Origin: Reclinomonas americana ATCC 50394
Lineage: Eukaryota
Direction: 5' to 3'
Length of the DNA: 35,257 nt
Assembly: GCA_048213135.1 (NCBI GenBank)
Contig: PS015101.1
Location: 89,456-124,712 of the forward strand
In this document: piece after piece, positions 1,770 to 35,257 of the stretch
Layout of the letters: every line of letters starts with the position of its first letter
Numbering within the stretch: position 1 is the stretch's first letter
Position numbers and translations under genes: made by a program
Notes under the pieces: generated by a model
Databases searched by the model: none
What the model was told of the DNA's origin: nothing
Seen by the model: only the letters and a program-made list of their open reading frames with translations

Positions 1770-2912
1770 TCACTTCCCCGCCACCGTCGGCCGCTTCTCC
1801 GCCAACTCCATAATGTAATTCCACTCGTCTTCGCGCACCGGCTGCACACTGAGGCGCGACTGGCGGAAGAGCTTCATATCGGCCAGTGCCGAGGACAGCG
1901 GTGGCTTGCCTGCGCGACGATGAGCGATGGGGGAGACAATGATCGCACAAGGTGTTGTCCACACCTTTCACCGAGACACCACCGTGCATCTTGAGCTCGG
2001 GCAGCGGAATCGGCCGCTTCATGTGCTTCACGTAGTCCCACGAGACGCAGTACCACTTGGGAGCGACACGTTGCGACGTGCCATCATAGTACTGACTCTT
2101 GGCTGTGTCGAGGAGAGGCATGAGAAGATCTCATACTTGTGTGCGGAAGACGAAGGGGCTGTCGCACGCAACAATCAAACTGTGTCTCGTCCGGGTGCGC
2201 CTCGTCAGCCACCTACATGCATCAATCATCGTCAGCAGACAGGCATCACTCCACCACAACAGCTTGCCACTTCTGAATGGTACCTGGACAACACCAACAA
2301 TGCCAGGATCTGTCGCGAATCCGCGGAAGAATGAGCGACACAGCAGAAGAGTGTGAGAAAGAAGGGGAAAACATCGCAACTCTTGCCCGAGTGGTAAACT
2401 GGCCACACCAACAAACAACGAGCCACACTCAGTGAGTCACAGCATACAATGCAGGCGATCGAGAGATGCACTCAACAGAACGCCAGATCGCCCTTCTTCA
2501 TGTCGTTCTTCATAAAGTTCTTGGCCTGCACATTACGCACACCATGCCAGTCCTACACAACAAGCAAGTCAGAGAGAGAGAGAGCAGAGACAAAAACGCC
2601 AGCTTGTATCATGCACCTCCGTCTGCGCAACACACACAGTGAGTGATCACAGATGCTCTCTCTTACTATCGCGTGCGTGTATGCAAAAGGCACCTTCACT
2701 CTAGCCATCTTCTCAATGCTGCACTCCTCCGGCTCACTCTTGATCAACCAGTATCCCACCAGCGAAGAAGACGAGCCAGACGCCGATGCGCGCTTGCTCT
2801 CCGGCTCATCTGTGCGCGACTACATAAGACACAAGACAGAGATACACAAGCGAGAGAGACACGAGCCTTCGTCGGGTTCCTCTGTCTTCAGTGTGCGCTT
2901 TTTGCTCGACAT
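1770..2912 (-). CDS. THYN1: EVE-domain protein (thymocyte nuclear protein 1-like), ~8 exons
   Basis: Spliced: MSSKKRTLK...GYWLIKSEPEECSIEKMARVK-TE-DWHGVRNVQAKNFMKNDMKKGDLAFFYHSGKNPGIVGVVQVADEAHPDETQFDSKSQYYD...PKWYCV...RQSRLSVQPVREDEW. Matches the EVE motifs YWLxKSEP, WxGVRN, FFYHS and RLSVQPV. Confidence 0.92.
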
Positions 2913-2971
2913 TAGAGTGAAAATCGTGGTGAAACGGCTCTCTTTCTCACAATCACATAACAGTGTTTTTG

Positions 2972-5900
2972 ATGGCGGAGAGCAGTGTGCTGACTCTCCT
3001 CAGTGAAGAGGAGCAGGGCACAACACCGCGCAGTGTCTTTGACAAGGTCTCATGGAGCACAGAGACCATACACGAGCTGGTCACCAAGGCACATGTCTTT
3101 CTCTCACAACCCTTCGCCTCTGCCTTCCCGCTCACTCCTCTGTGTGTTGCACAGATCATTCTGCACCTCATGGGCGACCGCAGGACACCTGAACAGACAG
3201 AGAGCCTGCGTCGTCTGTCGCCTGAGCAGCTGAATGCGCTGTTGGCCAGCAAGCGACACTTACTACGAATGACGGACTCGCGCGGTCGCACGTTCCTCTC
3301 GCACGCAGCCGAGTTGCGTGTCTTATAAAGGCTTGTGTGTGTTGCTGCTGACTCATGGGGGCGTGTCTGGCACAGGTGGGGCAACACAGAGCTAGTCACG
3401 TTTCTGCTGGAGCATCTCAGTCCGAATGTGCAAGACGAAGGTCGCGCAGTGACAGCTTGTTGCTGCTCTTTTGCTTGCCGGCTCACTGTGTATGTGATAG
3501 ATGGACGCACTGCGCTGCACTATGCGTGCTGGATGGGCCAGATGCAGAGCGTGAATCGCTTGCTGGCGCACCCGGATATCGATGCTGAGGTGGCCGACAA
3601 TCAAGACGTGTTGCGTGCTTTTCTCACTCGCTTTTTTTGCTCCTGCGTTGTGGCGTGCTCAAGGCGAAGGCGTAGGTGTCCGATCCATGAGGCGTGTCGG
3701 CTGCAGCAGGCGTCGGTGGCGCGTGCACTGGTGGCGGCGAATGTCTCGGTCAATGTGCGCGATTTGTCGCTGCGCACGCCGTTCTTGTGGGCGTGTCGGT
3801 ATGGATCGCCGGCCACTGTGCGCTACCTGCTGGAGGAGGTGTGTTGGTTAAGAGTCTCTCTCTCTCTGTCGCTCGTCGCGTTGCTCATTCGCGACGCAGA
3901 CCACGGCGGACGCGGATGCCACGGATCGCGAGGGCATGCATGGCATTCATCTCGCGGCCACGTTTGGTCACCGCACGACAGTCTTTCTGCTGATCCAGCT
4001 GCTGGGAGCGGATGTGCTGGAGCTGCAGAATACGCGGAGTGGACGCACAGCACTGCACTTTGCCGCCTCGTCGATCTCGCCGCAGAGTAGCCTCATTGTC
4101 GCCGACTTGATCGACTGGTGTGTACGCGCGATTGCTCCTGGCCACTCTTGATGCACGCATGGCTGACATCCTTTCTCGCCATGCGCAGTGGTGCCGACGT
4201 GAATTGCACTGGGTCGGACGGTCGAACGCCGCTAATGTGTGCATGCGAGTCTCCGGCGTCGGAAGTGACCGATGTGCTCTTGCGTCACGGCGCCGATGTG
4301 ACTCGCCGTGATCGAGGTCAGTGCTTGAGCGTACACAGAACATACTTTGCAGTTATTCTCACTCGTCGTATGCGTGTGCTTGTGTGAGCAGCGGGCGAGA
4401 CATGCATCCACGTGTGTGCTCGCTTCAACAATGTGCGAGCTCTGCGACGCATTCTCGACTTCCTCTCCAAGTCCACCTTTGTCACCCCCGACATGTACAT
4501 GCAACTCATCAATGCCCCTGCGTACAAGAGCGGCAACACGGCGCTCCATGTGGCCTCCAATGCGGGGCACTCGGAGGTCGTGNNNNNNNNNNNNNNNNNN
4601 NNNNNNNNNNNNNNNNNNNNNNNNNNNNNNNNNNNNNNNNNNNNNNNNNNNNNNNNNNNNNNNNNNNNNNNNNNNNNNNNNNNNNNNNNNNNNNNNNNNN
4701 NNNNNNNNNNNNNNNNNNNNNNNNNNNNNNNNNNNNNNNNNNNNNNNNNNNNNNNNNNNNNNNNNNNNNNNNNNNNNNNNNNNNNNNNNNNNNNNNNNNN
4801 NNNNNNNNNNNNNNNNNNNNNNNNNNNNNNNNNNNNNNNNNNNNNNNNNNNNNNNNNNNNNNNNNNNNNNNNNNNNNNNNNNNNNNNNNNNNNNNNNNNN
4901 NNNNNNNNNNNNNNNNNNNNNNNNNNNNNNNNNNNNNNNNNNNNNNNNNNNNNNNNNNNNNNNNNNNNNNNNNNNNNNNNNNNNNNNNNNNNNNNNNNNN
5001 NNNNNNNNNNNNNNNNNNNNNNNNNNNNNNNNNNNNNTCGATACTGGACAAGGTGCTTTTTGTTTGGAATTCAGTGCGCTCCTGCATCGCGGTGCTCACT
5101 CGTCCACACAACAACAGTGCGGCGCCAACATTTATGCAACCAATGCACTCGGAAGCACTCCTCTCCACGTCAGCGCACGCTCAGTCGAGGAGCTCTATGG
5201 CATTGGTGCGCGATTGTGCCCTGGCTCTCTCTCCCCAGTCTCTCTCTCTCTCTCCCTCCCTCCCTCCCTCCCGTTTCTCTCGCTCACACCTTTGCCCCCT
5301 CGCAGACCGCAGCCAGTTGCCGCTCTCCTTTGGCGACTCACCCGCCGGCAGTCCAACTCTGGAGCTGATTGCTGCCAGTCCAACGTACGGAATGGTCAAT
5401 GCAACCACGCCAGACGACGAAGAGGAGGATCAGGAGGGAGAAGAACACCTGCAGCCGCCCCGAGTTGTCGATATGCGCGACATGGCCACGAGTCCGGTGC
5501 AGCCACCGCGAGGGGCGATGAACTCGCGGCAGCGGTGGACCGCCGATGGCGACGGAGGTGCTCGTGCGCCTAATACAGGACAGCAGCAGCAGCAGCGACG
5601 CAGTGTGTCGCCGCCGCGGGCGTCCGGCCGCACATCGGGCGGTCCCATCTCCAGTTCCACGTTGACACTTCCGGGACCGACTGTGGCGTTCCAAACGACC
5701 ACCGTCACCACAGCCGTCGGTCATGCGGCGAGTGATGGAAGGCGCGAGTCTGCACACACTGGAAGTGGCGAAGAGCAGTTTGTTGTGTATCGCACGCCGG
5801 GCGAGGACGACGAGGTGGATGTGCCGCCTGCCGAACTCAGTGGCGACGACAATACGGGTCACCGTCGCACTGCGAGTGGCAGTGTGGCGGACGGCGAGGA

Positions 5901-7744
5901 GGAGGACGACGACGATGAAGAGCTCGGCGAGTGGTCGGGGCACCGTCCGGAGAGGAAACGACGACGCGCAAATGGCCGGTCACAGTCGCCACCGTCCACT
6001 CGCGGCAATGGCGGCCAGTCACCACCTCGTGCATCGCCGGTGGCGGCTCCAACGTCCGTGGGAAACCGCTCTCGCTCACCGCCGTCGGCGGGCAAGCGAC
6101 GCTCCACTTCGCCGACCGACGTGCCGGAATCGGAGCGCGGAGCTCACTTGCGCGCCGTTATCAATGCGACACACTCGCAAGTGCGGCAGATGCTGGAGCG
6201 ACGGAAGAAGATCTTGGTGCGTCTCTTACTCTCTTTATGCATTCATCTTGTGATGTGGTGACTGATTTCTGTCTCTGTCCGTCTGCAGGATCGCATGCAA
6301 GGCTCGGATCCGTCGGGGGCGCCTGCCTCGGAGGAGGAGGACAGGAGCGAGGGACCAGAGAGCAATGGAACCGACGTGAGTGCGCAGGGATTGGGTGCGC
6401 AGCGCCCACACGTGCGACTGTCAATATCCGACCTGATACCACCGGGCCCGGCCACCGTCACCGAATTGCTGCAATCGCGCACTGCTGACGGCTCGTCTCC
6501 GCCTCGTGGACGTCAGTCTCCTGTCACTCCGCCGCGTTCCGGATCGCCCATACACATCCGCTCGCCGTACTCGGTTGCCTCCTTCTCGCCCGGACCCATT
6601 ACGCCGTCACAGCATGAGCTGCATCCGCAGACGCCAGTGCATGCCACCATGGTGGTGGGGCCGCAGGGTGACCACCGTCGACTGATGATGCTTTCGTCAC
6701 CGACTGACTCTGAGGGTGAGCTCACGGCGCGCTCTGACGACGGCTACCTGAGTCACGACGGGCGTCGGTTATCATGGATTGGCTCGCCCGAGACGCCCAA
6801 CAGTGCAAGACCACGATCGCCGAGTCGTATTCTCGCATCGCCGGCCACGGCGGCCATCATGTCGAGCATCAGCGAGTCGGGTGGATTCATGGCTGCTGAT
6901 GGTGAGTGCTTTGTGTGTGAGTTGGAAGAAGATAGAAAGTGCGGTATCTCACTTGCGCGCGACTGCAGCTGTACCGGCCACATTGCAAGTCATGGTGGAG
7001 TCGCTCACGCTGACCATCACCACCGATGAGGTGTTCCAGGAGCGATCGGTACTTTTTCTTTTTCTTGTCTTTCTTACTGCGTGCATTGTATTTCCGCACT
7101 CGGTCTTACCTCTCCTGTTTGCAGTACAGTCGCACGGTGATCAACGACGCACTACAGTCGCACTTGAGCATCACGATTCCGGAGGTGCGTTCGCCATGGC
7201 TGTTGTGGTGGTGGTGTCTTTCATTTGTTGCTGACAGGCATTGGTGTGCACCACGCAGGGTTCCAATTTCTGCTTCCGTCTCGTTGTGCGTGTCACGGGC
7301 GACCGTGTGCCAACTGACGGCCTCGCTTGCATGCTGTTGACGCACAAGAAGCGTTGCGTGTGTCAATGGTCGATTTTTTCATGCAAGCGATCGTACTGAA
7401 ATCGTGGCCGTGCAGTGGTGGATCTGCCGTTTGGTCCCATTACACCACCGGTGGCACTCGAGTGCCGACTGCCCGACATTGGGACGAAGAAGGGCTTTGC
7501 CCATCGCTCCAAGCATCGAGCAAAGCTGGTGGTGCGTCAAGTGTCCGCCTGCATACACACGGTGCGACCCGTTGGTCCTCACCTCACCTGCCGCAGATTG
7601 TCGACGGCAAGGATAAGGCACTGTTCAAATTGCGAATATTGTGCCGTGAGTCTCTTCCCCAGTCATTATATCTCGTGACGCATCCTCACAACTTGTCTAC
7701 TGCGCGCAGGAATATGTTCACAAAGCTCGTTCTACTCGACGTGA
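2972..7744 (+). CDS. Ankyrin-repeat protein with a long Ser/Pro/Arg-rich disordered linker and a C-terminal RhoGDI-like (Ig-fold) domain; contains an N-gap
   Basis: Ankyrin motifs GRTFLSHAAEWG, GRTALHYACWMG, CPIHEAC, RTPFLWACRYG, GIHLAATFGH, GRTALHFAA, GRTPLMCAC, GNTALHVAS, GSTPLHVS. Spliced C-terminus VMVESLTL...SITIPEGSNFCFRLVVRV...DGLACMLLTHKK...FGP...KKGFAHRSKHRAKLVIVDGKDKALF resembles RhoGDI. Confidence 0.85.
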
Positions 7745-7802
7745 TACACCCACCTAATGTACTCCACAAAAATGCCCTGTTCTGTTTATCAACGCATGAG
7801 GG

Positions 7803-10800
7803 TTAGGGGGTGTGCGCAAAAGACTCCAGCTCGGCCAGCAGCTCGCTCTCGTCGTGATCGTCGTCGTCGACCTCAAACGTACTGTCGGCCGCCACCATCG
7901 TGTCGCCGTCAAAGGTGTTGAGGGGGAACGAGAGAGGGTTGGTGGCCGCCGTGCCGGTGGTGCCGGAGCCAGAGGAGATTGTCGACGTGTCGTCGATGGG
8001 TGGTGGCGACGTCCATCGCCTCTGGTGGCCAGGTGTAAGCGACGCGACCGACATGTTGGCCTGCTTGCTGGAGGACGAGCCGCCGCGTGGTGCCCGCCTC
8101 AGGGTCGACGACAACGGTGCCTGTGTTGGTGTGGGTGCTGAGGGGGCGGGCGAGGCCGGGGCTTGCGGCGGCGATGGAGCCCGAGCGTTTGACCCCGTTC
8201 CAGTGGTGGTCGACGTTGGCGTCCGAGTCGATCCTTGCGTCGTGTTGAGTGTCGAGTTCACGAACAGCAGCCGCGCGCCGCGCATGTTGCCCGGTGTATT
8301 TGACGGCGCCGGCGACGACGAGGCCGACGAAGATGCCGACTGCGGCGGTGATCCACGACCAGTGATGCGACTCTGCTGATTGTAACCAAGGCAAAAAGGA
8401 GAGAAACGAGTAAACCACTGCACGCTTCACAACCACAACAGGTGACAGGAACAGAGAGAACGCAAGTCATCGCAGGGAGGGAAGGCGAGCGGAGGGGTCA
8501 AGGAATAAGTGCGTCGACACACACCGCAAGGCAGAGAGTGCCACGTGCAGCGTACATTAACGGGCACATGAAACACACACACACACACACGGACGCGCCA
8601 CACACATACACATGTACAGAAACAATCACAAGACGTGGCTCGCTTGCAGGTCTTTCTGCAGCTGCTCTACCTCTTGTTCCAGTCGCTGGTTGCGTTCCAG
8701 AACTCGCCCGATTTGCGCGCTGGCACTGCCCAGTTGCACACTGGTGTGACTGCCGCCAAGAGTGGTGCCGCTGAGGTTGAGGGATGACGACGATGAGGTG
8801 TCGAGAATGGCCGACGGGGGCGATCGGGCGCGCGATCGCTGCACACGCTCCAACTCGGCCACATTCTGCGCGAGCGAGAAGGTGAGGACGGCGGGGTAGC
8901 ACAAGATCTCCCTGACTGCGAATGTGCCCGCACTGACCTGCACAAGACGTTGTGTCTGCGCCTTGAAATCATCTCGTTCGCGTTCCGCCACTGCCAGCTG
9001 CGAGCGCAACGATGCACACTCGGAGCGGAGCTTGGCTCGCGCCTCGTGTTCCCGCTGCAGGTCGCTGCGCACTGCGGCCAGCTCTTCGCCCAGGCGCTTC
9101 GCGTCCGCCTACCCATCATGCCTCCCGCGTGTGAGTGGCGTGGTGGTACTCTGTGTTACAGCTGCTGCAAGTTTGCCACACTCACCGCGTCCGGCAACGG
9201 CCCGCCGCCCTGCTGATGCTGGAGACGCTTGATCTGATCTTCACGACTGCGCAAAAGAGCCTTATGTACCTCCTTTTCACGCTGCAGCGAGGCCACCAAT
9301 GTCTTCAAGCCTTGCTCCTCCTGACTCCCAACAGTGAGTGTAACGTGAACAAGTTCCTCACCCCTCTCGCCACTCCGCACCTGCTTGTGCCACTCAATGT
9401 CGCTCTCGCACCGCTGCACCTTTTGCTCCAGCCGATTGATGGCCTCGATGGACTCGGTGCGATGTTCGCGATCGCGTGCTGCATCGGTCTCCAGCCGGGT
9501 GATTCTCTGCACACAAGCACACATCCAGTGAGAGTCGCGGGAGGGCGCAACGATGTAAAATGAGATGATCCCTGCGCGCACACATACCGTGTTGAGCTGC
9601 GAGACTTGCTGCTGGTACGCCAGTGCCTCCCGCTCCATGCGATGCACCTGATTCTGCAGAATGATGTTGCGCTGTTCCACTGTCGTCATTTCTGCCACGG
9701 TGGACTTGAAGCTGGCCATCAGCTCCTGCACGCATGCGCGTGACTATGACTGATGAATGCGCATGAAAAAAAAAGAAGACTGCATCGCGAAACCTCATTC
9801 TCCTTGCGCAGCTCAGCCATCACCATGTCTGCCGATGGCGACGAGACACGCACAGGTGGCGGAGGCGCAGCCGCAATGCTCTCGGCGTGACGGAGACGCT
9901 CCTCCAGTTCCGCAAGACGCGACTGAGGCACTCAGGTGAGACGCAGTAGCGCATGAGATGCAGATACAACAACACATCCGAACCTGCAGCGCATCGCTGT
10001 TTGCCTTGACCACCTGATGTGCCTCGGTGGCAGCCTTGAGTTGCTTCTCCAGTTGCAGCACTGCAGCTTGTCGGTCGGCGAGATCAGCCTGCCACACAGA
10101 CATACACTTACACACATGAGTGATGCTGAGTAGAGGACGAATATGTACCGGGTCGTTGTCACGCACCCTGAGCTTCTCTGCCGCAGATGCCGCCTGCATG
10201 TGTTCAACGTGCAGTCAGAAGAGCGAAGTGAAACATGAGGGTCACGATGTCGGAGCACACCTGTCGCTGGGCCTCTGCGGATGCCTTCACGTGGCCCTCC
10301 AGTTCTGCCACGGCCTGCTTGCGATCGGCCAACTCGTTCTGCTCGACAGAGTAAAGTCAGCTCACCGCACAAAATCACTTCTCATTCTCTAAGCTGCACC
10401 TTTAGGCCCATGACGGTGACATCGGCCTGCAGGCGCAAAAACAGTGCACGGTGTGAGTCACCGTGCGCAGTCAGAGTGAATGAGATTACAACACACCCGA
10501 TGGCGTGCCTCCACCGCGGCCTCCAGTTGCAGCTCGAGACGCGACACTGTCTGCGTCTGCTGCGCCACATCGCTCTCTACCTTGGCCAATCGCTGTTCGC
10601 GCTCCTGCAGACGTGCGGCAGTGTCGTGCTGCAGCTGCTGCAGCTCCATCACCTGGGCACGCTCTCGCACGAGTTCCTCCAACAAATCAGCTGCATTCGT
10701 CGCTGCTTCCGCGTCGTCAGGCGACCGCGGTGGCGACGGTGATGATTGCTGCTTGACAGAAGCAGCGCGCTGTTGCTTTTGTTGCTCCTCCTCTTCCTCT

Positions 10801-12626
10801 TCTTGCTGCTGCTGTTGTTCCCTCGCCTCTGCCTCTGCGTGATGTCGTTCCAACTCGTGCTCCAACTCCTGCACTCGTCCCATGAGGTCTTGGTTCCGCT
10901 GGATGAGTTCGCGCACCTCGTCTTGCACAGCGACATCGTCGGCCAGCCGCTGCGTCACCCGCTCATGCATGGCGTCGCGCTGTTCGCGCAGTGCGCGCAG
11001 CTCCTCCAACACCACCTCCAGGCCAGTCGCTGTCTGACCTTCGGATTCCGTCGACGGAGGCGACAACTCGGCCGTCACCTTGTCGAGTGCATCCTGCAGT
11101 GTTCGTCTCTCCAGCCGCTCCAACGCCAGCTTCTCCTGCAAATCGTCCATCAGCAAGCGGTGCTGCTCGCTCATCTGTGTGCGATTTAGGAAAGCGTCAG
11201 CGTTGCAAATAATCGTAGCATGCAACACTTTAGCACCACTCGACCTCCTGCATGTCGTCGAGTGCCTTGCGGTGACTTGCGCGAGTGCGGTTCAGCTCGC
11301 GAGCCACCGTCTCACGATCGGCAATCACAGCCTCCATCTGTCGACGCTCATGTCAGGCACCACATGACGAACAGCGACACGCGTGCAACAAACCTTCGCC
11401 TCCACCAGCCTTATCTCCGCCTCCCGCTTGCTGGCATCCTCCACTCGCTTTCGTAACCTGTCACGCTCCAGTGCCACAGACCGTGAATCCACTCGCGCAC
11501 TCTGCAACTCGGCGCGTGTCCCCTCCAACGCCGCTTGCATCTCAATCGTGTGCTCGCGCAGCTCAGCCTCTCGACCCTCTGCTTGCCGCGCCGCAAGCTC
11601 AGCCTGACTCGCACGCGCTGCCGCAGCTTCCGCCTGCACGCAACCCCCCACACGTGCGTGAGAGAGAGAACGAACACAAGGCGGCGGGGCGGTGGAGAGA
11701 CGACTACACAACAATGCGTTCCAGCTCGGCACTGTGCAACTCGGCCTCCCTCAGCGCCTGCTCCACTCGCTCGTTCCGCTCCCGCTCCTCACGCGCCTTC
11801 TTCACCGTCTCCATGGTCTTTCGTCGTTCATCCTCGAAGGCCTCGCGCTGCCGATCGCCGTCAGCTCGCAACTCATTCACCTGATCCAGTAACCTGCACT
11901 CGGCGTCTCAGAGCCTCACTCGCATGCAGACACACACACAGGAGGGCAACATGCACACCGATCACGAGCGTCCTCTGCCAATCGACAGCGATCCGAAACA
12001 TCGGCGAGCTGCCTCGATAACCGCGAGAACTTGTTGCCGAGCGCCTCCAGCTCACGCGACGGCGGCGAGCACGACAGCTCATCCCGCGACGAGCTACTAC
12101 TTGCACTCCCTCCAACGCCACCACCACCAGCAGTGCTCGCCCCGACTCCAGTCGGCGACGCGAAAATCCCACTTACAATCGTCGACGACGAGTTGCTGGC
12201 GTTCGACAATGGACTGCCCCGCGAGATCAAAATCAGCACCTGCAATGACCCTGCAATCGCCCTCTCTTCTCATCACATTGTGCCTATTTCCCCCCCTACC
12301 TTGTCGACATGTGCAAGAGATGCCGCTGCGAGGGCGGCAATCCACCAGTGCCCGGTGGACTCATTGTCACCAGTGAATCATCGCCTCCCACACTGGAGTT
12401 TGCAGTGGGCATCGACACTCGATGAGGCTGATCGCGATCCGACGCCGACAGCGACATGAGCACCGCCACTGCCTCCACCTCTGCACACACACACACACAC
12501 ACACACACAAAGAAGAAGAAGAAGAGAAAATTAGGCGCGAAAAAACATGCTGAGAAAGAGCGACTGTGTGCGATGAGGATAGAGAGAGTGAGAGAGTGTG
12601 TGCATGAGAGACGCACCTTGTTGCAT
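7803..12626 (-). CDS. Long coiled-coil protein of unknown function (multi-exon; start at ATG 12626 or 12457)
   Basis: Successive minus-strand exons rich in E/Q/R/L/A heptads (e.g. LMDDLQEKLALERLERRTLQDALDKV; LRSDLQREHEARAKLRSECASLRSQL), S/P/T-rich tail ending ELLAELESFAHTP*. No family recognised. Confidence 0.75.
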
Positions 12627-18800: not shown

Positions 18801-19675
18801 CCTGCGATCACACACACGGCTACCGTACTCGCGCCTGTTCCAGTGCACGCTGATTAGTGGTGCCTTGTCGGTGAGTGGCCGGCGAACTTGTTTTTGCGCG
18901 TGCCGAGCCTCATTCACACCACATGCTCCGCAGGTCGAGGAAGTGCTGTCATACAGCTCCACCGATCTCGACTCCAAGTTTATGTTTATCCTGGACGCAT
19001 ACAGTGAGGTGTTTGTGTGGACGGGCTCGCGCTCCGACAAGCAGCGGCTACGTCCGGCAGTGTTGGCGGCCGCCACGGTTCGTACCATGCTGTGAATGCG
19101 ATGTTGCCACCCGTGTTTAGAGTGTCTCATCTCGCTTCCTCGCAGCGGTACATTGAGACGGCAAGAGACGGACGGTTGGGCGACACACCGATTGTGGAGG
19201 TTCTGGAGGGTCAGGAACCGGTGCTGTTCACCTGCCATTTCCAGGTTTGTATCCTCTTTCTCTCGCGCTTGTACAAACTGATTGTCGACTGACTTACTGT
19301 GCGGCGCTGCAGGGTTGGCGACCAACCTTTGAGAAGGAGTTTGACGATCCGTACGACGAGAAGATGCGGCGCACAGGTCGTGTGGGTCGCGTGCTGCCGT
19401 CGGCCAACTCACCCGCGGGTGTTGCCGGTCCATCGGGCTCCGCGGGCGACAGGAGACCATCGGCAGCCGCCGAGCCGGCCAAGTCGCCGAGTCCATCACT
19501 GTTGTACTCGGCGATCCGCGGGCAGCCGGCGAGCCCGACCGACGGTGACGACGACTCATCGGGTGGCGAGAGCGACGACTCGGATGAGAGTCGGCACACG
19601 GTCGGCCGTGCCCTGCTCCGGCAGCGCGCACTCATGAATCAGCGGCAGCCAACAGTAGGGTCGCCGCATCAATGA
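12848..19675 (+). CDS. PH domain + six gelsolin repeats (villin/gelsolin superfamily), no villin headpiece; contains two N-gaps
   Basis: PH: KVEGWLLREG...YWCTFDG...FALVAGPTREYHFMTASGTEARSWMAVLQ. Gelsolin repeats: VWHVSKFQLVRVP...GNAYVLL, HYWVG, LLESAHCYLLE...LFVWIGK, EGGEPALFKSLFAGW, VEVWRID...GVFLSGECYLV, SLNSGDVFLL...YAWIG, FILDAYSEVFVWTG, EGQEPVLFTCHFQGW. Confidence 0.9.
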
Positions 19676-22634: not shown

Positions 22635-25600
22635 GCGGCAAAGGCGCCACCGCCTCCGCCGCCACCACCAGCAGCAGCGCCGCCAGCCGCCTCTGCAGCT
22701 GCTGCAGGAGGTGCGAGTTGTCTCCGCTGTGTCTGCATGTCGATTGTCGCTCTTCTTCCTCATTGCGTTGGTGCACAGGTGGTGGTGGTGTGGTGCCGCA
22801 GACAGTCGTCACGGCAGTGTTGCGTGACGTTGGACTCGAAACGAAGCCACCATATGTGGTTCGTGTGGATGTATACACATTCTTACATCATCAGTTCCTC
22901 ATTGCATCTCTCGTGTCTGCAGTCGACCGGCAGCTACCGCATGAATGACACGTACCTGGCGGTGATTGACGACATTGCGAATGCCATGGCGGAAGGTGCG
23001 ACGGTGGCATGTGCATGATATATAAGTGTGTGTGTTGCGCGCAACTGACGAGTGACGACAAACTGCAGGGAGGAGCAGCATTACGGTGACCGCCGATCGG
23101 TTAGAGGCCATACGGGAATGCTTGCAGGGTTTTATGTTGAAGGACAAGGACTCGCTGGCCAACTGCACGGCGTTGGTGAGTCGATCCGTCGCGGTGACGG
23201 TTGTTGTCGCTGTTGCTTACTCGTTACATCCATCATCAGGCACCCAAATTGCGCGAGAGTCTACAGCGGCACAATGTGAATTGTGAGTCGATTCTCTTGT
23301 GTGCACTATTGCGTGACCGCAAGAGCTCACCTTTTGCCTCTGCGTGACAGCTTTCGCCGCTCCACTCTCCGAAGGGAGCCCATCATCGCATGCCGAGGCC
23401 GGTGAAAGAAGGAGAAGACCACGACTGGAGGTGGCGTGCGCCGCACAGCTCAACTGCCTGATCCCTCGATGTTAGTCTCACTCCCGACTCGCACAGCACA
23501 TTCCAATCGACGGTACTCCTGGTCCCGGTCGGCGACAACGCAGTCCGCTGGAGCGTGGTGCGTATGCGCAGATGCACAAGGGCACTGGAATGTACTCGCC
23601 GTATCCCGATGGTGAGTGCGCACTGGTCGCCGGGCACTGTGCCTGCATGCAGAGTACTCACACACTTGTGCGTCACAGAGAAAGGCGCCGCCCGTCGCAA
23701 GTTGCGAAGACCTCACTGCTGCTGCCAGCTCGTTTTAATAGAGTGAATCTGACAAGGTTCTTCGCAACGATGCAGGAAGGATGATGGCGCTGGTGAAGGT
23801 GCAAATGGCAAGCCGGCGAGGAAAGGTGGTCAACGGAGGAGAAAGCGCGACCGCAATGGGTTTGTTATCGTCTTTCGTTGTTAAATCTCCTCTCCGTCGC
23901 CTGTGCATCTCATCCTCGCGAATCGCAGTGACGAAATTCCCGGAACCGAGGGTCACGGCAGTAGTGGCGACGAGGATTCGGCGTCCATGGCGTCGTACAC
24001 TGTTGCGCAGTGATGCTGGGCGAGCCATTGCATGTCTATATCGCCCGTCTCACACATCTCCGCCTTCTGGGGTGCAGGAGGGAGGCGATGACTGGGCGGC
24101 AACGACTCCGGTTGAGGGCGATGGCAGTGCGCAGCCACGTCGTCCGGGCGCGAAGCCACCAGTGTCTGGCTCGGCTGTTCCATCTCCCCGTCACGCTGGG
24201 CAGTCGTGGAGCGACGCTCCAGAGGTTTGTCGTGGTGTCGCCGGGTAGTGAGCGAGCTATTGGCGCGACCTCACGTGCATCGCAGCCAATGGCACTGGAC
24301 GGCGCTGGAGTCGGTGGTGGGTCGCCGCAAAAGGGAACCAAAAAGGCTGGATCGAAGAAGACGGGCAGCGCTGCTGCGAACTCGGCCAAGACCGGCCGCG
24401 GAAAGGGAGCCACATCGAGTGGTTCCAGCGCCACGCCGCTGCCTGAGGCACCGCCCGAGAGTGGCTGCATGGGGCAGGGGTTCGGTGTGAAGAACGGCGA
24501 GTTGTGGACAGAGATGCAGGACTTTTTCGTGCCGTCTCACGTGCTCGACCCGAACGAGCTGACGTACAAGGTTTGATTGAGTGGTGTTTGAGTGGTGGTA
24601 TCGAGATACTAAAACACAAGTCCACGCACACAGCCCGTACAAGACGAATCACTCTTCCAGATACCACCACTGGGTCGGCCGTATGCGGAAAAATGGCACG
24701 ATGATGATGCACGCGGGCTCGATGCCAGCATGTTTGACGACGATGATCCGAGTTACATGCCGCGTGGCTCGTCCACTCGTGGTGGCGTCGGACGCATGTC
24801 GGACTACAACACTCCAGGTTGCGTATCTGGCGGATTGTAGAGAGGAAGTACCTGCCAGTGCTGACATGCAGACACTGTACACAGCGGCGCGAAAGCGACG
24901 GACGGCAGCGGCATCGGCGTATGGCGCCTACACGCCGTCAACTCCTGTTCCCTTGTCGACTCATCGTTGCGTTTCTGTGTGCGCGCATACATGGCTGCGA
25001 GGATATGTGTGAGTGAGTACTCACTGGTTTCCTTCCCCGACAAGCAGCAAGTACTCCATTCGAGGCTGAGCCGATTGAAGTCGAGTCGGAGGCATTTACC
25101 GCCGGTGGCGACGGTTCGCTCAAGTTCCTGAACGAGACGCAGTTGGACCCCGACGAAGTGGGCTTTGCATTGTCGGGACCCGCTTTGGCGAAGCGGTGCG
25201 TGCGCGCTCTCCCTCTCTCTCTGCTCCATTCTCGCTGCCGTTGTGCTCACTTCATGTGGTGCAGGTTACTTGGCGCACTGGTGAACACGCCGATGAACGA
25301 CAAGCTGCATGCTCAGTTCCGCGCGGTGCCCTTTGAGGTGCCCAAGGGAAGTGAGAGGGCGGGTGGCGAAGCCGGCGCTGGCGCTTCGTCTGCATCGTCT
25401 GCGTCGGGTGCAGGTGGTGCGGCCGGGGACGGCAGCAGTGATGGCGCTGGTGGCGATGTGGAGATGAAGGAGGGCGAGAGCCAGCAATCGGCGGCGGCGG
25501 CGGCAGCAGCAGGCGCTGCGGCTGGAGGTCCGCAGGTGGATCCCGTGTTGTTGTCATTCGAGGCCGACGGCTACGTCTTTGTACAAGAGGCGGCGCCGGC

Positions 25601-27698: not shown

Positions 27699-27736
27699 CG
27701 GTTGGGCGAAAAAATGTATGGTCGACTTTAATTTTT

Positions 27737-29549
27737 TTAGCTCTCTTTGCAGCTGGGTGGTCTCGGCAGCCATTCTCGCTCGACCAGTACGCGCAGACAC
27801 TCGGCTGCTGCGCTCTCCTCGGCCATTCTGGCTGTACGTCCACAGCATCCCTCCTGTCCCGCCAAACACCTCCACCTCGTCATTCGGCAGCACGCACCAC
27901 GCGCGCCACTCGTGCGTCGATTCGGTGACAGCGATGCGCTCCCTGACGTACTCNNNNNNNNNNNNNNNNNNNNNNNNNNNNNNNNNNNNNNNNNNNNNNN
28001 NNNNNNNNNNNNNNNNNNNNNNNNNNNNNNNNNNNNNNNNNNNNNNNNNNNNNNNNNNNNNNNNNNNNNNNNNNNNNNNNNNNNNNNNNNNNNNNNNNNN
28101 NNNNNNNNNNNNNNNNNNNNNNNNNNNNNNNNNNNNNNNNNNNNNNNNNNNNNNNNNNNNNNNNNNNNNNNNNNNNNNNNNNNNNNNNNNNNNNNNNNNN
28201 NNNNNNNNNNGGGTGTGCGCATGTAAAAGTCGGTGGGATGCGAGGCCACAAACTCGGCCACGACCTCGCACGGATTCTTTTCGTACGACACGGCCCTGCA
28301 TGTGTTGATGAAAGTGAGCTTAGTTGGGGAGCGGCGATGGGGGAAGGGATGGATTTGAGCGCAACGGATCGTCGGCGTGAACCATCGCGGTGCCGATAAA
28401 GAACAGCAGCGAGTACAAATCGTTGAGCCACTCCTGAATGAGTAACCTGTCGGCGTCGGTCGCGTGCAAGGCGTCGCATACTTGCGACAGTTCGCCTGTG
28501 GGGGAGTGGGAAAGGGAGGACAAGCGGAGATGAGCGATGGGGCAGTCAACTCACCAATCACGGCCTCGACACTGCACAGGAGACACACGTGAGCCACAAA
28601 GATGCACGTGTCAACAAAGCAATCGCGCAGGCTCACGCAACACGTCGCCCTTGGCCTTGATCTGTGCTGAATCCTGCAGCGGCACCTCGCTGGTGATGGT
28701 AATATGATCGGCCAGCTCAATCACATCGTAGCAGAGACTCAGCGTGAGGTTGGTCACACACGAGGAGCGATAGGTGGACAGCACTGCGCCGCGGAAAAAG
28801 TCAGCGCAAAAAAGAGAAAAAAGCAAGAAGGAACACCAAATTTAGCCCGCAACAATGCGCGTCAAAGAACGGGAATGCCTGCGCATGCGCGCACAGCTGC
28901 TTAGCGCAGCGACAAAGTAGACAGGCACGTGCACGTAGCTGCTCACCTGCATGACCTTCTTCGTCAGCGCCTCTTGCAACACGGAATCTCCATATGTTTC
29001 ATCGCCTGCATGCATATGCACCAATCTGTGAGACACAACTCGCAAGCAAAAACTGATCGCGCGGGTTGCGAAGGTACATCGTTGCGCAACGATCAAACTG
29101 CCGCGTGGTCCGCTGCACCGCATAATGCAAGTGCGGCGCAATGAACACAAATCGATCAGACAAGTCCTCTGCGTGATCGTCAGTCACTTGATATGCACAT
29201 CCAGCATACACGCAGACAGAGTCGACGCACTTGCACACTTTTGCACGTGCGACTGCCGCAAGGCGGCGCGCTGCGCCGGAATGCTCTTGACAGGACGCGG
29301 TCTGCGTTGAACGCCTGCGCTGCTGCCACTGCTGCCACTGGTCACACCGCCGCCATTGTGTCCTGGAGACTTGGCGCGTGTGGGAGAGGCAGAGTGAGGG
29401 CGCGCGCGAGGGCGTTGGAAGAGCGGAGGCTGTGTGATCACACGCGCGCGCGCGCGTGAAGGAACACAGGCAAAGAGTGTGAGTGCGCATTGGTGAGCGG
29501 GTTCTGTGGAGAGTGAGCGACAAGGTACCTCACGATGTGCGTCGGTCAT
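27737..29549 (-). CDS. Single-domain ribonuclease III with a C-terminal dsRNA-binding domain (~9-10 exons, N-gap inside)
   Basis: Spliced: FDRDETYGDSVLQEALTKKVMQAFPFFDAHLLSTYRSSCVTNLTLSLCYDVIEL...IKAKGDVVEAVIGEL matches the RNase III pattern ERLEFLGD...P...LxxxRSxxVxN...KxxADxxEAxIG. dsRBD-like KNPCEVVAEF ... RTARMAEESAAAECLRVL. Confidence 0.8.
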
Positions 29550-29732: not shown

Positions 29733-31072
29733 ATGTGTGAGGAAATCAGTGTGAATCTGTTCAAGACCGATGCCAGTGGTGTGGTGTGCTCCACCATTGT
29801 GCACCACTTGATCAAGCACGTGCTGTATGTGCGTCAGCAGATACCATGGTGAGGCGAGCTCAAGCATGTGCGTGAGAGAGAAGAAAGATGAGATTGATTG
29901 TGTTTCGCGCCCATTTGCGCAGTCCTCTGGAGCAAGTGTGGCAGATGACTGAGCAGGTTTGCGCTCTCCGCGTCTGTCTCTGTCTGCTCTCACACTCGTT
30001 GCTCACCGCACTGGGAAGATGTCTCCGCCTGCGCCTTCATCGCTCTCCTCGTCGGCGGACGACGAAGACGAGGAGGAAGAACAAGAGAGAAGACCGCAAG
30101 GACCCTCGCTCTCGCTGTTGGAGCGCAAGTGGGTCAAGGTACACTCACTGCACTCACAGCCTCCTCCTCCTCCCCTCCCTGCTCACTCGATTGCTTGCCA
30201 GTTCGCCGAGTCCAGTCGTCGTATGATGTCGGTGCTTGATCGGAGATTGAGAAGAGTTCCTTCGCTGGTGGCCTTGGTGCTTGGCGCGTCGCCGACCACG
30301 CCCAAGGAGGTGACACTGGTGCGCTTTCATCACGGGGAGCTGGACGCAGCAGTGGATGGGAGCGATCCAACGCTGCGGAAGCACGCGGATGATTGCGGGA
30401 GACGCGTGTTGCGCACAGTGGTGCAGAGTGCGCCGTCGTTTATGCATGCTGGCTTGAGTTTCGCTCGCCTCCACTCTCCCAGCTTGTTTTCATGCGCTGA
30501 TGTAAGTGGCACAGGCAAGACCAAGATGCACGTATTGTGGTGCGATACAGAGGGAGGCGACGTCGTCGGAGAAGAAGAGGATGACGGGGTGTTGCCGAGA
30601 CCAGAGGGCTTTGAGTTGAAACTGCGCACGGCCAAGGTGCTGGTGGTGCACGTGTTCTTCCGCAACTCGTCGTTGCGTGCTTCTGCTATTATCATCGCCT
30701 GCGAGGGTGTCGCTCATGTGGAGAAACAACAGTTTCGATCCGACGTATAGCGCCTTGTCGGATCCGAGTGCACGCTCGTCGGCCTTGGTGCGCTGCCTCA
30801 AGACGCAGGTTGTGCGACGACAACGCGGCTCGCAAGCATCATCGTCCACCATACACGAGAGAGAAGACCAAGAGGAGGAGGAGGAAGACGCGGATGCCTG
30901 CTCGTCGACGTTCACTTGGTTCCAATGTCGAAGCACTCTGAGCGGACTCGGCACGTTGCCTCCGCCTCAAGAGAAGCAGCGTGCGCGTCGACTGGTCGGC
31001 AAGATGGGCTTGCGCTTCCGTGCACGAACAGAGTCGGAGAAGGGAGAAAAGGCGATGGAAGGCGATGAATAA
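29733..31072 (+). CDS. MAD2L1BP: p31comet / MAD2L1-binding protein (HORMA domain)
   Basis: Spliced: HLIKHVLYVRQQIPCPLEQV, LVLGASPTTPKE, CGRRVLRTVV, VLPR..FELK and FTWFQCRSTLSGL match the p31comet motifs LLKHIMYQRQQLP, LGxxxxSPKE and WFQxxxxxKG. One junction (~30640-30705) is unresolved. Confidence 0.85.
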
Positions 31073-31113
31073 AGCGGGTGGGCGTTTTCTGAAGTGTCCT
31101 GTCTGTTTGTTGA

Positions 31114-34100
31114 ATGTGGCGCCCGCGACTGAGCAAAGTGCTGGTGGACTTGGCTGTCCTCAAGCGGTGCGAGCGCACGCGGCGATGTCCGTCGTCTTCT
31201 GTCTCTCTTGCTCACTGTGTGTGTGTGTGTGATGCAGTTGTCAGCATGTGCTTTCGCGCGCCTCGAAGGATGTGTCGTTTGAGGAGGCCTCGGCAGCGGT
31301 GCGCGATGTCAGTGCGCTGTTGCGCAGTCGGTGGGTGTGGGGGTGATAGGGGAAAGGGAGGAAGGGGATAGAGAAGAGAGAGAAGAGAGAGGAGAAGAGG
31401 GAGCAACGAAGATGAAAAGGAGAGAGGGGAGGGAGGGACTGGAGGAGAGAAAGAGAGAAGGATTGGGAGGAGAGAGCGCACAACAGCAGAGAAGGAGAAG
31501 GGAGAGGGAGAATGGGAGGTGAGAAATTGGAGGAGAGGGAAGGAGAGGAGAGGCGATTGACTTGCAGACGCTGTTGACAAAGACAAGAGCTGATAACGCG
31601 GTCCACAGGCGACTGTTGACCTGTCTGCGCCCAGCTGATCGCACCCATGGTAACTGTCGAGCTTGTTGTGTGCGTGCTCTTCTGTCGTCGCTCACTCATG
31701 CTGTGGTGATGCAGCCACACGCGATGCAGCCTCCACAGAGATCGTGACACTCTTCGCCTCGAGGGTCGGTGCATCGCCACCAGCATCGTCGTCGACGTCC
31801 TCCGCTGTGGACACGCTCGTCATGTTCACCAGTGAGGTTGGATTGAGTATATGTCATCGGAGAGTGTGCGCGATGCCTGACTGCTGGAGGCGCAGTGTGT
31901 TCTCGCTGCTGTGCGTGCCGCCGCTGTGTGGCTGGAGAGTCTGGCTGCCGACGCCTGCCGACCGGAGCTGGACGATGATCAGGCGGTCGATGCAATGATT
32001 CGAGTGTGGAGGTTTTTTGATAATCCGCGCTGTCTCCCCTTGAGGAGCCTCCTGACGATGACGACGTTGGTGGTCGTGCTTGTGCAGAACGGCCTCCGAT
32101 CTCGCCAGTGGATGCGCCTCGTTTTGTGCCGATCGTACACTGCTGGACACAGATGGCGTATTCGCCAGCCAGAATCATGAACGTGAGGCACCCCGTGCGT
32201 CCCCATCGGCTGCACAACTTTCCCACCCTGCGCCCCGCAGTCATGTCGTCGATCGTGTCGGGTGGCGAGCTGCTGCAGCAGTGGGCCACGGCTCGCGCAC
32301 AGCGCATCGTATCGTCGTCGTCGTCGTCCAATGGCAGCGACAGTGCCTTTTCGAAGCGCTTCTGGGAGTCATGCACGTCCACAGATGGTGGCAGAGGGAC
32401 GCCGGAATGGTCCCTCGCACGCTTGTGGCAGCGCGAAGAGCCGCTTGTCGCTGCCGTGGCGCAGCACATTGCGGTCGACCGATCACTGTTTCGGTGTGTT
32501 ATAGATTGACTGAGGTGGAGTGCCTAGTCGGCATTGTCGAGTGACGGTGGTGTGGCTGCAGGTGTCCGCCTCCTCACTTGGCGTGGAGTCTGGGCGCGAG
32601 TGTGCAGGTGGTGCGCAAACGGGACGATGTCTTTGCGGGGTTCGAAGGCACTTTTTTCGAAACGTTGCGCCAGAGTGTGAATTCAGTCTTGCAGGATGAG
32701 CAGCCGAGTCACTGTGTGCGGTTGCGTGCAGTGTGGGAAGACACTACTTTCAGCAATTGTCTCGCGTGCCAGTGTCTACCGATGCACCGCGCGTCAGCCG
32801 GGCACTGAGTTGCACATCATTCCCCTGTTCAATGACGACGAGCAGTTCCAACTCATGTTGCGATAATGGCAGGCGCCCTCTCGCACGTACCCGGCGATCC
32901 ATCTCATCGACAGGCGCTATTCGTTGCCACCTTGCCGCTACTGGTCTGCTTGATTGACAACGCACATGATTGTTATCCGTGCTTGACTCGCCTGTCACTC
33001 CACAGCGCGATCTGTTTGATGCTCAGCTGTTGCCCTACGTGCACGACGTGCACGCGGTGGCCAACGACATTACGAAATCGCTGGCCATGGTCGACGTCAC
33101 CGCCAATCCACCACTTGTGTTGCTCACGTACCCGATGACCGATGCGAGCGAGCGGACACGCGACTTTGTGATTCCTATCACATGCGCAGCGGGTTCCGTG
33201 GTGCAGATTGTGGATGCGTGGCTGGCCAACGGATGGACATTGTTGGCGACGCAAGCGGGTGGGGCGAGTGCAGAAGTGGAGGTGTGTGTGGCATGTCGCG
33301 CACGGTTTGATTCTCTCAAACTGAACGCTTCTTCGCATGCGCACAGGCCGAGTTGCTTCCGCCGCTTCCACCGCCACTTGTAGGCGGAGTGAGTGGTGAA
33401 AGTGACCAGGATGAATCCGACATAATACGAGTGGCCGTGGCGCGTGCTCGTGCATTGCCCAACACGGCCGCCGATCCGCAGTTGTGGCGTGCACTCTCGT
33501 CGGCACCGGCCATGCGTGTGCACGTGCTGTCGGCATTGCATGGTGTGCTGCAGTCGGTGGTTTGCTGGTCGGCCAACTTGGTGCAGCGCTATCCGTCCTT
33601 TGTCAGCACGAAGCACGCATTTGGTGTGCTTGGCGACTTGTGGGAGGTGACTGAAAGCGTTTCAGATGATGGCATACTTTCGACTGACGAAAGTGGCGAC
33701 GTGCAGATTCGCTCCGCTGCCAGTCACTGCCTGAGCAAGCTGCTGGCGGACGAGCACGCCAGAGACAGTACGTGCTTCCCCGCCAATGCGTCGTCCATCC
33801 TCGATGACAGCGGTCTCTCCATGGTGCTGGCGCGCCTCTTTGATGCCGCGCTGCGCGAGTTGGAGTCCAACATTGCCGGTCACTTTGAGCGCCACCTCCA
33901 CAAGTCGCTCTACTCGATTAGCACGGCCGGCGGTCGCATTCTGCCCGATGCGGTGTCGCCGTGGGTGTTGCTGCTGGTGCGCCTGTGGTGGTGAACCTCA
34001 ATGTGCGTGCCATTTTGGGGAGCTGTCTGACCCGTCACCCCTCTCAGTTGACCGAGCTGTGGACGCCCGCCATGGAAGCACTTCGCCAGCATCCGCTGGA

Positions 34101-35091
34101 GACGCGAACTGCGGTGCTGGAGCGCCTCTTGCACTTGTCGCTGTCGGGTCTGTGGACGGCGGTGGCGACTGTGTACAAGAGCACTCGCATCACGCGACTC
34201 GGTGCGCGGCAGCTGGCGCGTGATGTGGAGGCGTTGTTGGATTATTTGCGGGCGTCGGAGGATTTGACACCGGTGTTGCGTGAAGGGAAAGGGAGGGTAG
34301 CAATAGAAGGATGTTTGTTGTGCTGCGACAAGTACAAAGTGAAAAGATGACAGCATGCTCCTGTGCTGCATTGGTTGCGAGAGAGATCCGTAGACTATGA
34401 GTGTGCGACATGGAGAAGGGAGGGGGAAGGGGAAGGGAGGGAGATGGGGAAGGGGGTGAAAATGGGCAGAGAAGAGAGGAGAGAGACGGTGGAGGAAGAA
34501 AGGGGAAGGGAGGAGAGAGACAGTGGAGGAGGAAAGGGGAAGGGAAGAAGGGCTTTTCCGTCGTCTCTGTTCAGAGAAGGAGATGTGAAAAGTATGCATG
34601 CCGAGAGGGTGAAATGGACAGAAGATAGGAGAGAGACAGTGGAGGAGGAAAGGGGAAGGGAGGAAGGGCATTTCCATCGTCTGTGTTCAGAGAAGGAGTG
34701 ATGCATGTCGTGCGTGCCGAGAGGGTGAGAATGGACTGAGAAGAGACGAGAGAGAGACGGTGGAGGAAGAAGGAAAAGGGAAAAAGTGATCGACAGTGAG
34801 AAGGGATTGCGTCGTCTCCGTGCAGAGAAGGAGTGATGCTTTGTGCGTGCTTACCGACTGAAATTGGAGGGTGTAACATTCTGCTTCTTTCCGTTCCTGC
34901 TTTGCTTGCCTCACCACCCACTCGTTCTCCAACGCAGGGACGTCCACGACTTGCTGCAACACACCACTGTCGAACGCACCAATCTGATTCTCGGCGTCCT
35001 GCAAGAGGAACATCTCGACCGCAAGACGTGCGAAGCGCAGTTCCCACTGGCCGACATTGAGGTGTGGATACGATGTCGAGCCAAAAATTGA
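31114..35091 (+). CDS. Large alpha-helical protein, CATCHR-type tethering fold, possibly CCDC142-like; start uncertain
   Basis: C-terminal VSPWVLLLLTELWTPAMEAL...RITRLGARQLARDVEALLDYL...LILGVL...DIEVWIRCR resembles the 'GAxQLxxD' motif of CATCHR proteins (CCDC142, COG, RINT1). The CDS is solid; the family call is tentative. Confidence 0.55.
34410..34835. repeat. Purine-rich modular repeat inside a 663-nt intron (34275-34937)
   Basis: GAGAGAC(G/A)GTGGAGGA(A/G)GAAAGGGGAAGGGA x3-4; CC(G/A)TCGTCT(C/G)TGTTCAGAGAAGGAG x2-3; GCCGAGAGGGTGA.ATGGAC x2. Confidence 0.85.

Positions 35092-35133: not shown

Positions 35134-35257
<124 letters not shown>

Follow-up and report, generated by a model that had tools for sequence, protein, structure and literature searches.

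The question raised by the stretch of Reclinomonas americana ATCC 50394 DNA analysed here (contig PS015101.1; the window, 35,257 bases with eight runs of N and a GC content of 40-63%) is how introns that begin with GTTGCG are recognized. Short introns with a CTSAY branch motif and a CAG acceptor are densely packed across the window, and an earlier note proposed that 22 of them start with GTTGCG or a close variant, as if the ordinary donor had been moved by one base. The GTTGCG donor class exists and is frequent in the window, the cut falls at its GT, and the class is tied to exons whose last base is not G. This second, very uniform 5' splice site, H/GUUGCGU(G) (H is A, C or U; the slash marks the border between exon and intron), sits on introns that appear to be U2-type and is most likely read by U1 in a +1-shifted register, a reading that we hold with about half of our confidence. 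Positions are those of the window, and a minus sign marks the reverse strand. Donors of the form GTTNNG with a base other than G at +5 are referred to as class S, or S-type.

Introns were predicted by dynamic programming with self-trained codon usage, scored branch sites and acceptors and bounded intron length, and the donor was entered as a bare GT. The first passes of this gene finder over-merged genes and were not used for counts. The raw number of GTTGCG hexamers in the window is mildly high, with 44 on both strands compared to 30 +/- 5.6 after shuffling, and 2 of 100 shuffles reached 44. Within gene regions, the donor-agnostic pass used 14 of the 33 sense-strand GTTGCG sites (hypergeometric p=2e-10, against a background of 108 predicted introns and 2035 GT sites). 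GTTGCG is the top donor hexamer of that pass, followed by GTGCGT (5/31) and GTGAGT (4/15). The 59 spurious introns predicted outside the gene regions used none of the 11 GTTGCG sites located there. An unsupervised two-class mixture, given the 108 donors and no prior, separated g.aG/GTGcGTg (67%) from ...t/GTTGCGTg (33%). The S-type share ranges from 20 of 108 introns in the raw output of the gene finder to 21 of 64 in a high-confidence set. This set combines 29 curated junctions from four genes with 35 introns that were chosen by both the donor-agnostic and a later pass and had to be 45-130 nt long, with a branch motif and a YAG acceptor. An annotation-free test gave a weak signal, since 17 of the 44 GTTGCG sites lie upstream of branch-plus-acceptor modules and 21% were expected to do so (p=0.006); the main donor, GTGCGT, was not significant in the same hexamer test. 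Ranking candidate sites by the length of the flanking open frames was uninformative because the exons are short.

Homology supports the cut at -2476, -2380 and -2172 in an EVE/THYN1 gene and at 17108 and 18255 in a villin/gelsolin gene. The EVE exons 2809-2694, 2552-2477, 2398-2381, 2309-2284, 2212-2173, 2102-1965 and 1909-1785 join into an unbroken THYN1-like protein. Exon 2552-2478 aligns to THYN1 (5j3e_A) up to residue 112 and to positions 25-47 of the Pfam EVE profile, and exon 2100-1966 begins at THYN1 residue 143 and Pfam EVE position 78 (profile 78-115). The model has 29 residues between these anchors, compared to 30 in both THYN1 and the Pfam profile. Therefore, the three small exons and the junctions 2476, 2380 and 2172 fit to within one loop residue. 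Junction 2380 is located in the loop that lacks this one residue relative to THYN1 and the profile. As the earlier note had claimed, cuts of the /GTTGCG type rebuild the AFFYHS region at -2476 and the FDSKSQYYD motif at -2172. The 18-nt micro-exon 2381-2398 (reverse strand), which encodes YHSGK, has S-type introns on both sides. Between the EVE exons 2809-2694 and 2552-2477 the gene finder inserted a 6-nt exon, 2617-2622 (reverse strand), encoding TE; it would fill the otherwise missing Pfam EVE positions 22-23, and the alternative is one 141-nt intron.

A villin hidden Markov model (HMM) was built from 45 of 72 retrieved homologues with lengths of 700-950 residues. The open frames of the window match this model in order, with 16940-17107 corresponding to profile positions 261-314 and 17173-17652 to positions 315-445, and the HMM places junction 17107/17173 between profile positions 314 and 315. 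All frame-keeping GT/GC..AG variants within 30 nt were scored against the HMM. The chosen cut ranks first at 10 of the 12 villin junctions, including all three GTTGCG junctions and seven of the nine others, which served as a control. Both misses concern ordinary donors, 17651, where the result is a tie, and 15939, where the manual choice is probably wrong. The runner-up at each of the three GTTGCG junctions is a GC donor 3 nt downstream. At 18255 the next GT donor scores 8.9 bits lower than the chosen one, and 16848 ranks first of 10 with a margin of just 0.5 bit. At 14951, the donor-agnostic pass preferred an in-phase GT 3 nt upstream (t/GTCGTTG). The first villin-domain junction, 15931-16016 on the forward strand, was assigned manually to act/GTATGCTG, which scores 458.0 bits; the HMM prefers gct/GCGTAACA (462.7 bits), tgc/GTAACACT (461.9) and tat/GCTGCGTAA (460.4). 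The last of these would correspond to an S-type donor with GC in place of GT.

Reading frames support the sites 3313, 3610, 7353, 23701, 24002, 24818, 24966, 34275, -11712, -28365, -28641, -28853 and -29090. At ten of 22 S-type junctions, both exons stay in frame with no other GT..YAG pair within 30 nt. In the ankyrin-repeat gene, the cut at 3313 yields HAAE-WGNTELVTFLL, with the same spacing as the uninterrupted repeat IHLAATFGHRTTVFLLI of the same protein (exon 3900-4117), and each of the five frame-keeping alternatives deletes repeat residues. When 34274 is joined to 34938, the frame stays open (..ASEDLTPV-DVHDLLQHTTVERTN..), and a CTCAC lies some 25 nt upstream of the CAG. At -28853, the gene finder did not use the site and continued through the GTGAGC intron that precedes it.

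The 22 coordinates listed in the earlier note all carry the hexamer and strand given for them, and the last exon base is A, C or T at 21 of them, the exception being 24818 (cag/GTTGCG). As intron starts, 18 of the 22 are well supported, 14951 is ambiguous, 12932 is only a possible one, and 32664 and 32809 are unsupported. Around 12932 the exons lack a coding signal, and its gene has its first ATG downstream, at 13086. At 32809 (forward strand, GTTGCA) the exon ends on an in-frame TGA in phase 0, or a stop follows the join to 33006 in phase 1. At 32664 (forward strand, GTTGCG; within 32664..32814) read-through is open, and a single intron 32716-33005 (t/GTGCGG) fits too. Four additional sites were absent from the earlier list, 16848 and 30672 (GTTGCG) and 30458 and -9793 (GTTTCG).

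The junctions of gene H were previously said to rebuild RNase III motifs. DETYGD and GDVVEA are indeed present in the spliced product, within ..DETYGDSVL.. and ..GDVVEAVIG.., which we take to be RNase III signatures, the family name being unconfirmed. Searches of Pfam with five exon peptides and of the PDB with two gave no RNase III match. The gene H protein may be very divergent, or the resemblance to RNase III may be superficial. The 17-nt micro-exon 28555-28571 (reverse strand) of this gene, which encodes VEAVI, comes after an S-type intron.

At each GTTGCG site an in-frame GC donor is available at +3, and the junctions might be mis-modelled, with the true cut elsewhere (for example a GC-AG intron from GTT/GCGTG, 3 nt downstream) or with chance matches taken for introns. 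The EVE model, one residue short of THYN1, leaves room for one +3 cut among its three junctions. Five of the nine gene models are without homology support. A gene-finder pass with a learned donor model, trained on its own output, made at least one false S-like call, at 2298, which is contradicted by the EVE residue count. Therefore, the counts use the donor-agnostic pass, its intersection with the later pass, or the curated genes. However, moving the cut to the +3 GC donor lowers the villin HMM score by 6.3, 2.4 and 0.5 bits (2.4 at 18255), would break the AA-x-x-G-N spacing of the ankyrin repeats, and would break the spacing of the putative D-x-x-E-A motif of gene H. The enrichment of GTTGCG arose without a donor model, and the spurious introns outside the gene regions ignored the hexamer. 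We consider it very improbable that the junctions are mis-modelled.

The high-confidence set contains 32 introns of class N (GTNNG), 29 of which follow an exon with G as its last base (-1 G), 21 introns of class S, with -1 G in 2, and 11 introns of class O (other donors), with -1 G in 10. Thus, -1 G precedes 2 of 21 S-type introns and 39 of the 43 others (Fisher p=1.8e-10); in the curated genes alone the counts are 0 of 12 and 15 of 17 (p=1.8e-6). Viewed from the exon, 19 of the 23 introns after a base other than G are S-type, compared to 2 of the 41 after G. The proposed link between donor class and exon end holds within the window as a near-absolute rule: an exon ending in G is followed by a normal donor, and an exon ending in A, C or T by GTTGCG. 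Class O donors (for example GTACAT, GTGCAT and GTGCCT) have almost no intron-side consensus, and A is at -2 in 8 of 11.

The logo of class S has T at +3 and G at +6 in 21 of 21 donors, both by class definition, G at +4 and C at +5 in 19 of 21 each, T at +7 in 12 of 21 and G at +8 in 11 of 21. Class N has G at +3 in 21 of 32 and T at +6 in 22 of 32. When aligned on the core, /GTTGCGT differs from G/GTGCGT in a single base and in the cut, which comes one base earlier, as originally described. The exon side follows the same displacement: position -1 of class S (A6 C5 G2 T8) resembles position -2 of class N (A15 C6 G1 T10; chi-square p=0.51), and position -2 of class S resembles position -3 of class N (p=0.54). 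The S motif is thus displaced by one base as a whole, on the exon side too.

All 24 introns listed in Table 1 have a GT 5' end and an AG 3' end. CAG is the acceptor of 20 of the 21 S introns (the other one has TAG) and of 31 of the 32 N introns, and the median intron lengths are 70 and 68 nt, respectively. Of the S introns, 19 of 21 have a CTSAY-type branch motif, at a distance of 13-34 nt from the 3' end; of the N introns, 30 of 32 have one, at 10-36 nt. The median distances from branch to acceptor are 20 and 16.5 nt. Pairwise local alignment revealed no mutual similarity of S introns beyond their first 7-8 bases, with a mean score of 8.0 and a maximum of 15 among S introns, 8.4 and 18 among N introns, and 8.3 and 16 between the two classes. 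Removal of the introns restores the frame and conserved family sequence in the EVE and villin genes and the frame only elsewhere; it fails at 32809. The S introns thus seem to be genuine U2-type GT-AG introns with a displaced donor core.

The uniform 5' end and the missing exon-side consensus recall two known kinds of intron, and the S introns could be recently spread, transposon-derived introners or a transformed minor-spliceosome (U12-like) class. U12-type introns start with RTATCCTT, and their branch site, near the 3' end, resembles TCCTTAAC. The 5' end GTTGCG is unlike RTATCCTT, and the alignment scores among S introns are no higher than those that involve N introns. Because length, branch motif, branch distance and acceptor match those of ordinary introns, and because there is no shared sequence, the S introns are in all likelihood neither introners nor U12-type, and we regard this origin as barely credible. 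If both ends were cut one base further downstream (TT..GN), the mRNA would keep its length, and it would be identical for the 11 of 21 S introns in which the next exon starts with G; this option was rejected on parsimony alone.

Based on the displaced core, a mechanism of recognition can be proposed. The conserved core UGCGU would be presented one base further from the cut than in G/GUGCGU donors, and the 5' end of U1 snRNA would pair with it one position out of step. The first G of the intron would fill the slot of the usual last exon G, the U at +3 would replace the U at +2, and the G at +6 would replace the G at +5. Cleavage would still be set by the sole GU present, and hence would occur one base upstream of the place expected from the register. 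We infer from these patterns that the +1 register is adopted by U1 and then by U6. A shifted register would account for three features of class S, namely its lost preference for -1 G, its requirement for T at +3 and the displacement on the exon side.

Alternatively, U1 might pair normally with class S while one U of +2/+3 is looped out. Such a bulge gives the same number of base pairs as the shift, and bulged registers are established for human sites in the excerpted text of Tan et al. 2016 (PMC4856993). Candidate bulge sites are the donors in which C stands at +3, aag/GTCGCG (3441, forward strand), aag/GTCGCC (13122, forward strand) and gag/GTCGAG (11244, reverse strand). These donors, just three cases, all keep -1 G, unlike class S, as a bulged and not a shifted register would lead one to expect. 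A bulge leaves C9 of U1 free for -1 G, so the preference should stay, whereas it is lost in class S, and the base to be looped out is nearly always T, which is required by a shift and not by a bulge. Three patterns favour the shifted over the bulged register, namely the lost -1 G preference, the resemblance of position -1 of class S to position -2 of class N, and the -1 G retained by the three donors with C at +3. We consider the bulged register improbable.

The composition of the core is a difficulty for pairing with an ordinary U1. The sequence GCG makes up the core in 17 of 21 S donors and 8 of 32 N donors (p=8e-5), and class S is far more uniform than class N. The RNAduplex calculations took the 5' end of canonical U1 from the sequence given in Tan et al. 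2016, and the U1 of this organism may differ from it. They gave -0.3 kcal/mol for the S consensus, with a 3-bp duplex and no stable pairing in any register, compared to -7.1 kcal/mol for the N consensus and -1.9 kcal/mol for the N consensus without -1 G. Canonical U1 would favour A, not C, at position +5 of class S. Moreover, H/GTNNG donors are almost absent (3 of 23 introns after a base other than G), though canonical U1 should bind them at least as well. These donors could be read in the normal register, with no shift, by an snRNA that is dedicated to them or specific to the lineage, such as a second U1, or an altered U1/U6, with a 5' end complementary to GUUGCG(U), and the near-invariant G at +4 and C at +5 would suit it. 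Against such an snRNA, the window contains no snRNA gene (at gathering thresholds Rfam found no RNA gene at all, and at E<=1 just two sub-threshold matches to miRNA models), and S and N introns cannot be told apart by their 3' halves. The likeness of position -1 of class S to position -2 of class N is a prediction of one shared register. The uniformity of GCG and the weak pairing with canonical U1 therefore make a lineage-specific U1 5' end or a dedicated snRNA a serious rival, and we rate it as possible, if rather unlikely.

The +1-shifted register has to be weighed against several facts. The sample is one 35-kb window, and sequence patterns are the only basis for the register. The gene regions were drawn by eye, 35 of the 64 high-confidence introns rest on the in-house gene finder, and for the curated junction 15939 other options later scored better. 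In class S, G is depleted at -1, though not significantly relative to the background, in which G precedes 120 of 721 GTT in the window and 5 of 22 non-donor GTTGCG. G is rare before GTT anyway, and the pattern is therefore a lost preference for -1 G, not an avoidance of G. Together with the excess uniformity of the core, its poor predicted pairing and its C at +5, these points weigh against a +1 register of canonical U1. From the interpretation put forward in the earlier note, the descriptive displacement and the link to exons without a final G stand; two of the 22 sites are unsupported, a simple shift is at odds with the GCG core and its poor canonical pairing, and the second option of the note, a variant U1/U6, therefore stays a possibility. 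We confirm and extend the observation, and the interpretation is plausible and partly supported by the patterns described above.

About nine genes were recognized in the window, and their positions are given together with the introns in Table 1.

Table 1. Genes and candidate introns of the window (slash, border between exon and intron; pick, chosen by the donor-agnostic pass; alternative, another candidate pair of splice sites)
Feature	Coordinates	Strand	Exon end/intron start	Length (nt)	Gene or context	Evidence
Gene	about 1785-2912	-			EVE/THYN1	Pfam EVE match
Gene	about 2960-4582	+			ankyrin-repeat	
Gene	5300-7700	+			no recognized family	
Gene	7825-12457	-			coiled-coil	
Gene	starts near 13086					
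Gene	14777-19600	+			villin/gelsolin	homology
Gene	22635-27146	+			no recognized family	
Gene	28211-29300	-			gene H	
One or two genes	30019-35257	+			no recognized family	
Intron	2103..2172	-	att/GTTGCGTG	70	EVE/THYN1	joins ..TQFD to S-KSQYYD; unbroken EVE domain
Intron	2310..2380	-	aga/GTTGCGAT	71	EVE/THYN1, after 18-nt micro-exon 2398-2381	YHSGK-N-PGIVG; no other GT..YAG within 30 nt
Intron	2399..2476	-	tct/GTTGAGTG	78	EVE/THYN1	rebuilds GDLAF-F-YHS; no alternative
S-type intron	3313..3375	+	cga/GTTGCGTG	63	ankyrin-repeat	
Intron	3610..3675	+	cgt/GTTGCGTG	66	TAG acceptor	sole in-frame GT..YAG pair within 30 nt
Intron	7353..7415	+	agc/GTTGCGTG	63		pick; one in-phase alternative
S-like intron	9726..9793	-	gag/GTTTCGCG	68	-1 G	both gene-finder passes
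Intron	11634..11712	-	att/GTTGTGTA	79	coiled-coil	pick; in-phase GT 3 nt downstream is a possible alternative
Possible S-type intron	12932..13084	+	tca/GTTGCGCA	153	probably 5' UTR	gene-finder pick
Intron	14951..15022	+	gtc/GTTGCGTG	72	villin-like, N-terminal part	frame-consistent; ambiguous
Intron	16848..16923	+	cat/GTTGCGCG	76	villin/gelsolin	pick; no alternative GT..YAG pair
Intron	17108..17172	+	caa/GTTGCGTG	65	villin/gelsolin	villin HMM rank 1/9, next best 6.3 bits lower
Intron	18255..18312	+	aga/GTTGCGTA	58	villin/gelsolin	villin HMM rank 1/6
Intron	23701..23775	+	caa/GTTGCGAA	75		pick; no alternative
Intron	24002..24077	+	act/GTTGCGCA	76		pick; no alternative
Intron	24818..24884	+	cag/GTTGCGTA	67	sole -1 G case of the earlier list	pick; three or four alternatives
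Intron	24966..25047	+	atc/GTTGCGTT	82		pick; no alternative
Intron	28296..28365	-	tcc/GTTGCGCT	70	gene H	pick; no alternative
Intron	28572..28641	-	cgt/GTTGCGTG	70	gene H, before 17-nt micro-exon 28571-28555	pick; no alternative; KAKGDV-VEAVIG
Intron	28784..28853	-	att/GTTGCGGG	70	gene H	no alternative; AFPFFDAH-L-LSTYRSS
Intron	29006..29090	-	atc/GTTGCGCA	85	gene H	pick; two alternatives; RQFD-R-DETYGDSVL
S-like intron	30458..30514	+	tga/GTTTCGCT	57		both gene-finder passes
Intron	30672..30732	+	gtc/GTTGCGTG	61		both gene-finder passes; in-phase GT 3 nt upstream
Intron	34275..34937	+	ggt/GTTGCGTG	663	full of GA-rich repeats	

The nearest relatives of a villin exon, with 36-43% identity among 1.84 billion representatives, are from animals, Rhodelphis and haptophytes. 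Metagenome contigs contained neither a relative of the villin exon nor an exact match to a 33-nt exon stretch, and an EVE exon had no match in a set of 5.8 billion proteins. Neither of these two protein searches returned a protein of the organism itself. The villin domains are preceded by a low-complexity extension of about 330 residues within 14777-16000 (forward strand). This segment and 25265-26147 (forward strand) are long stretches of Ala/Ser/Gly/Thr-rich low-complexity coding sequence with no Pfam match. Among introns of about 70 nt, 17651-18081 (forward strand, 431 nt) and 34275-34937 are long and rich in GA-rich simple repeats, where the gene finder otherwise made false low-complexity exons. 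Positions 1-2000 of the window have a strong strand asymmetry (GC skew -0.28, AT skew -0.29) and GA/CT-rich repeats, and the gene finder produced no convincing gene model there on either strand.

U1 registers with a shift or a bulge count as rare exceptions, demonstrated site by site in human minigenes. A displaced donor in a fifth to a third of introns would be a natural large-scale experiment on the division of tasks between U1, U6 and the catalytic centre. We speculate, and think it unlikely, that the lineage has rewired its 5' splice site recognition, with a second U1-like snRNA or a changed U1/U6 pairing dedicated to /GUUGCGU introns. If true, this would add a third, abundant way of recognizing introns to the U2- and U12-type modes, and it would serve almost all exons whose last base is not G. 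GTTGCG junctions would be overlooked or wrongly placed by gene predictors that had been trained with one donor model. A search of open-access full text, with figure logos and supplements outside its reach, found no description of a GTTGCG/GUUGCG donor motif.

The closest known counterparts are human. Roca and Krainer reportedly described +1 shifted-register 5' splice sites of humans in 2009, and Roca et al. are said to have added bulged-nucleotide U1 registers in 2012. As in the human +1 shifted sites, the donors of the window have GU followed by an extra U and a conserved G at +6 instead of +5, the cut stays at GU, all U1 pairs would move by one position, and -1 G is not needed. Unlike them, the core is GCG and not AAG, and canonical U1 would not favour GCG. 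The frequencies differ as well: in the excerpted text of Tan et al. 2016 (PMC4856993), where shifted and bulged registers are described, all validated non-canonical registers together account for 1.5% of 201,541 human 5' splice sites, compared to 20 of 108 to 21 of 64 introns for class S. The excerpted text of a tunicate paper (PMC13326754) merely mentions the shifted-register idea. Bulged registers share with class S the one extra nucleotide between GU and the downstream conserved G; they keep the pair with -1 G, whereas the S donors have lost the preference for it.

Other systems resemble class S in part. Like U12-type introns, the S introns form a second class that has a much more uniform 5' end, lacks an exon-side consensus and occurs side by side with ordinary introns in the same genes. 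Their 5' motif is different, however, and in branch site and branch spacing they match the ordinary introns of the window. Like introner elements, they are many short introns with an identical start; unlike them, they have no similarity past the first 7-8 bases. Exon-side and intron-side ('left-handed' and 'right-handed') classes of 5' splice sites are linked to LUC7 proteins. As in these classes, the complementarity to U1 lies either in the exon, as in class O (AG/GT, -1 G in 10 of 11), or in the intron, as in class S. However, the LUC7-linked classes share one register, whereas the intron-side class of the window is, in addition, displaced by one base.

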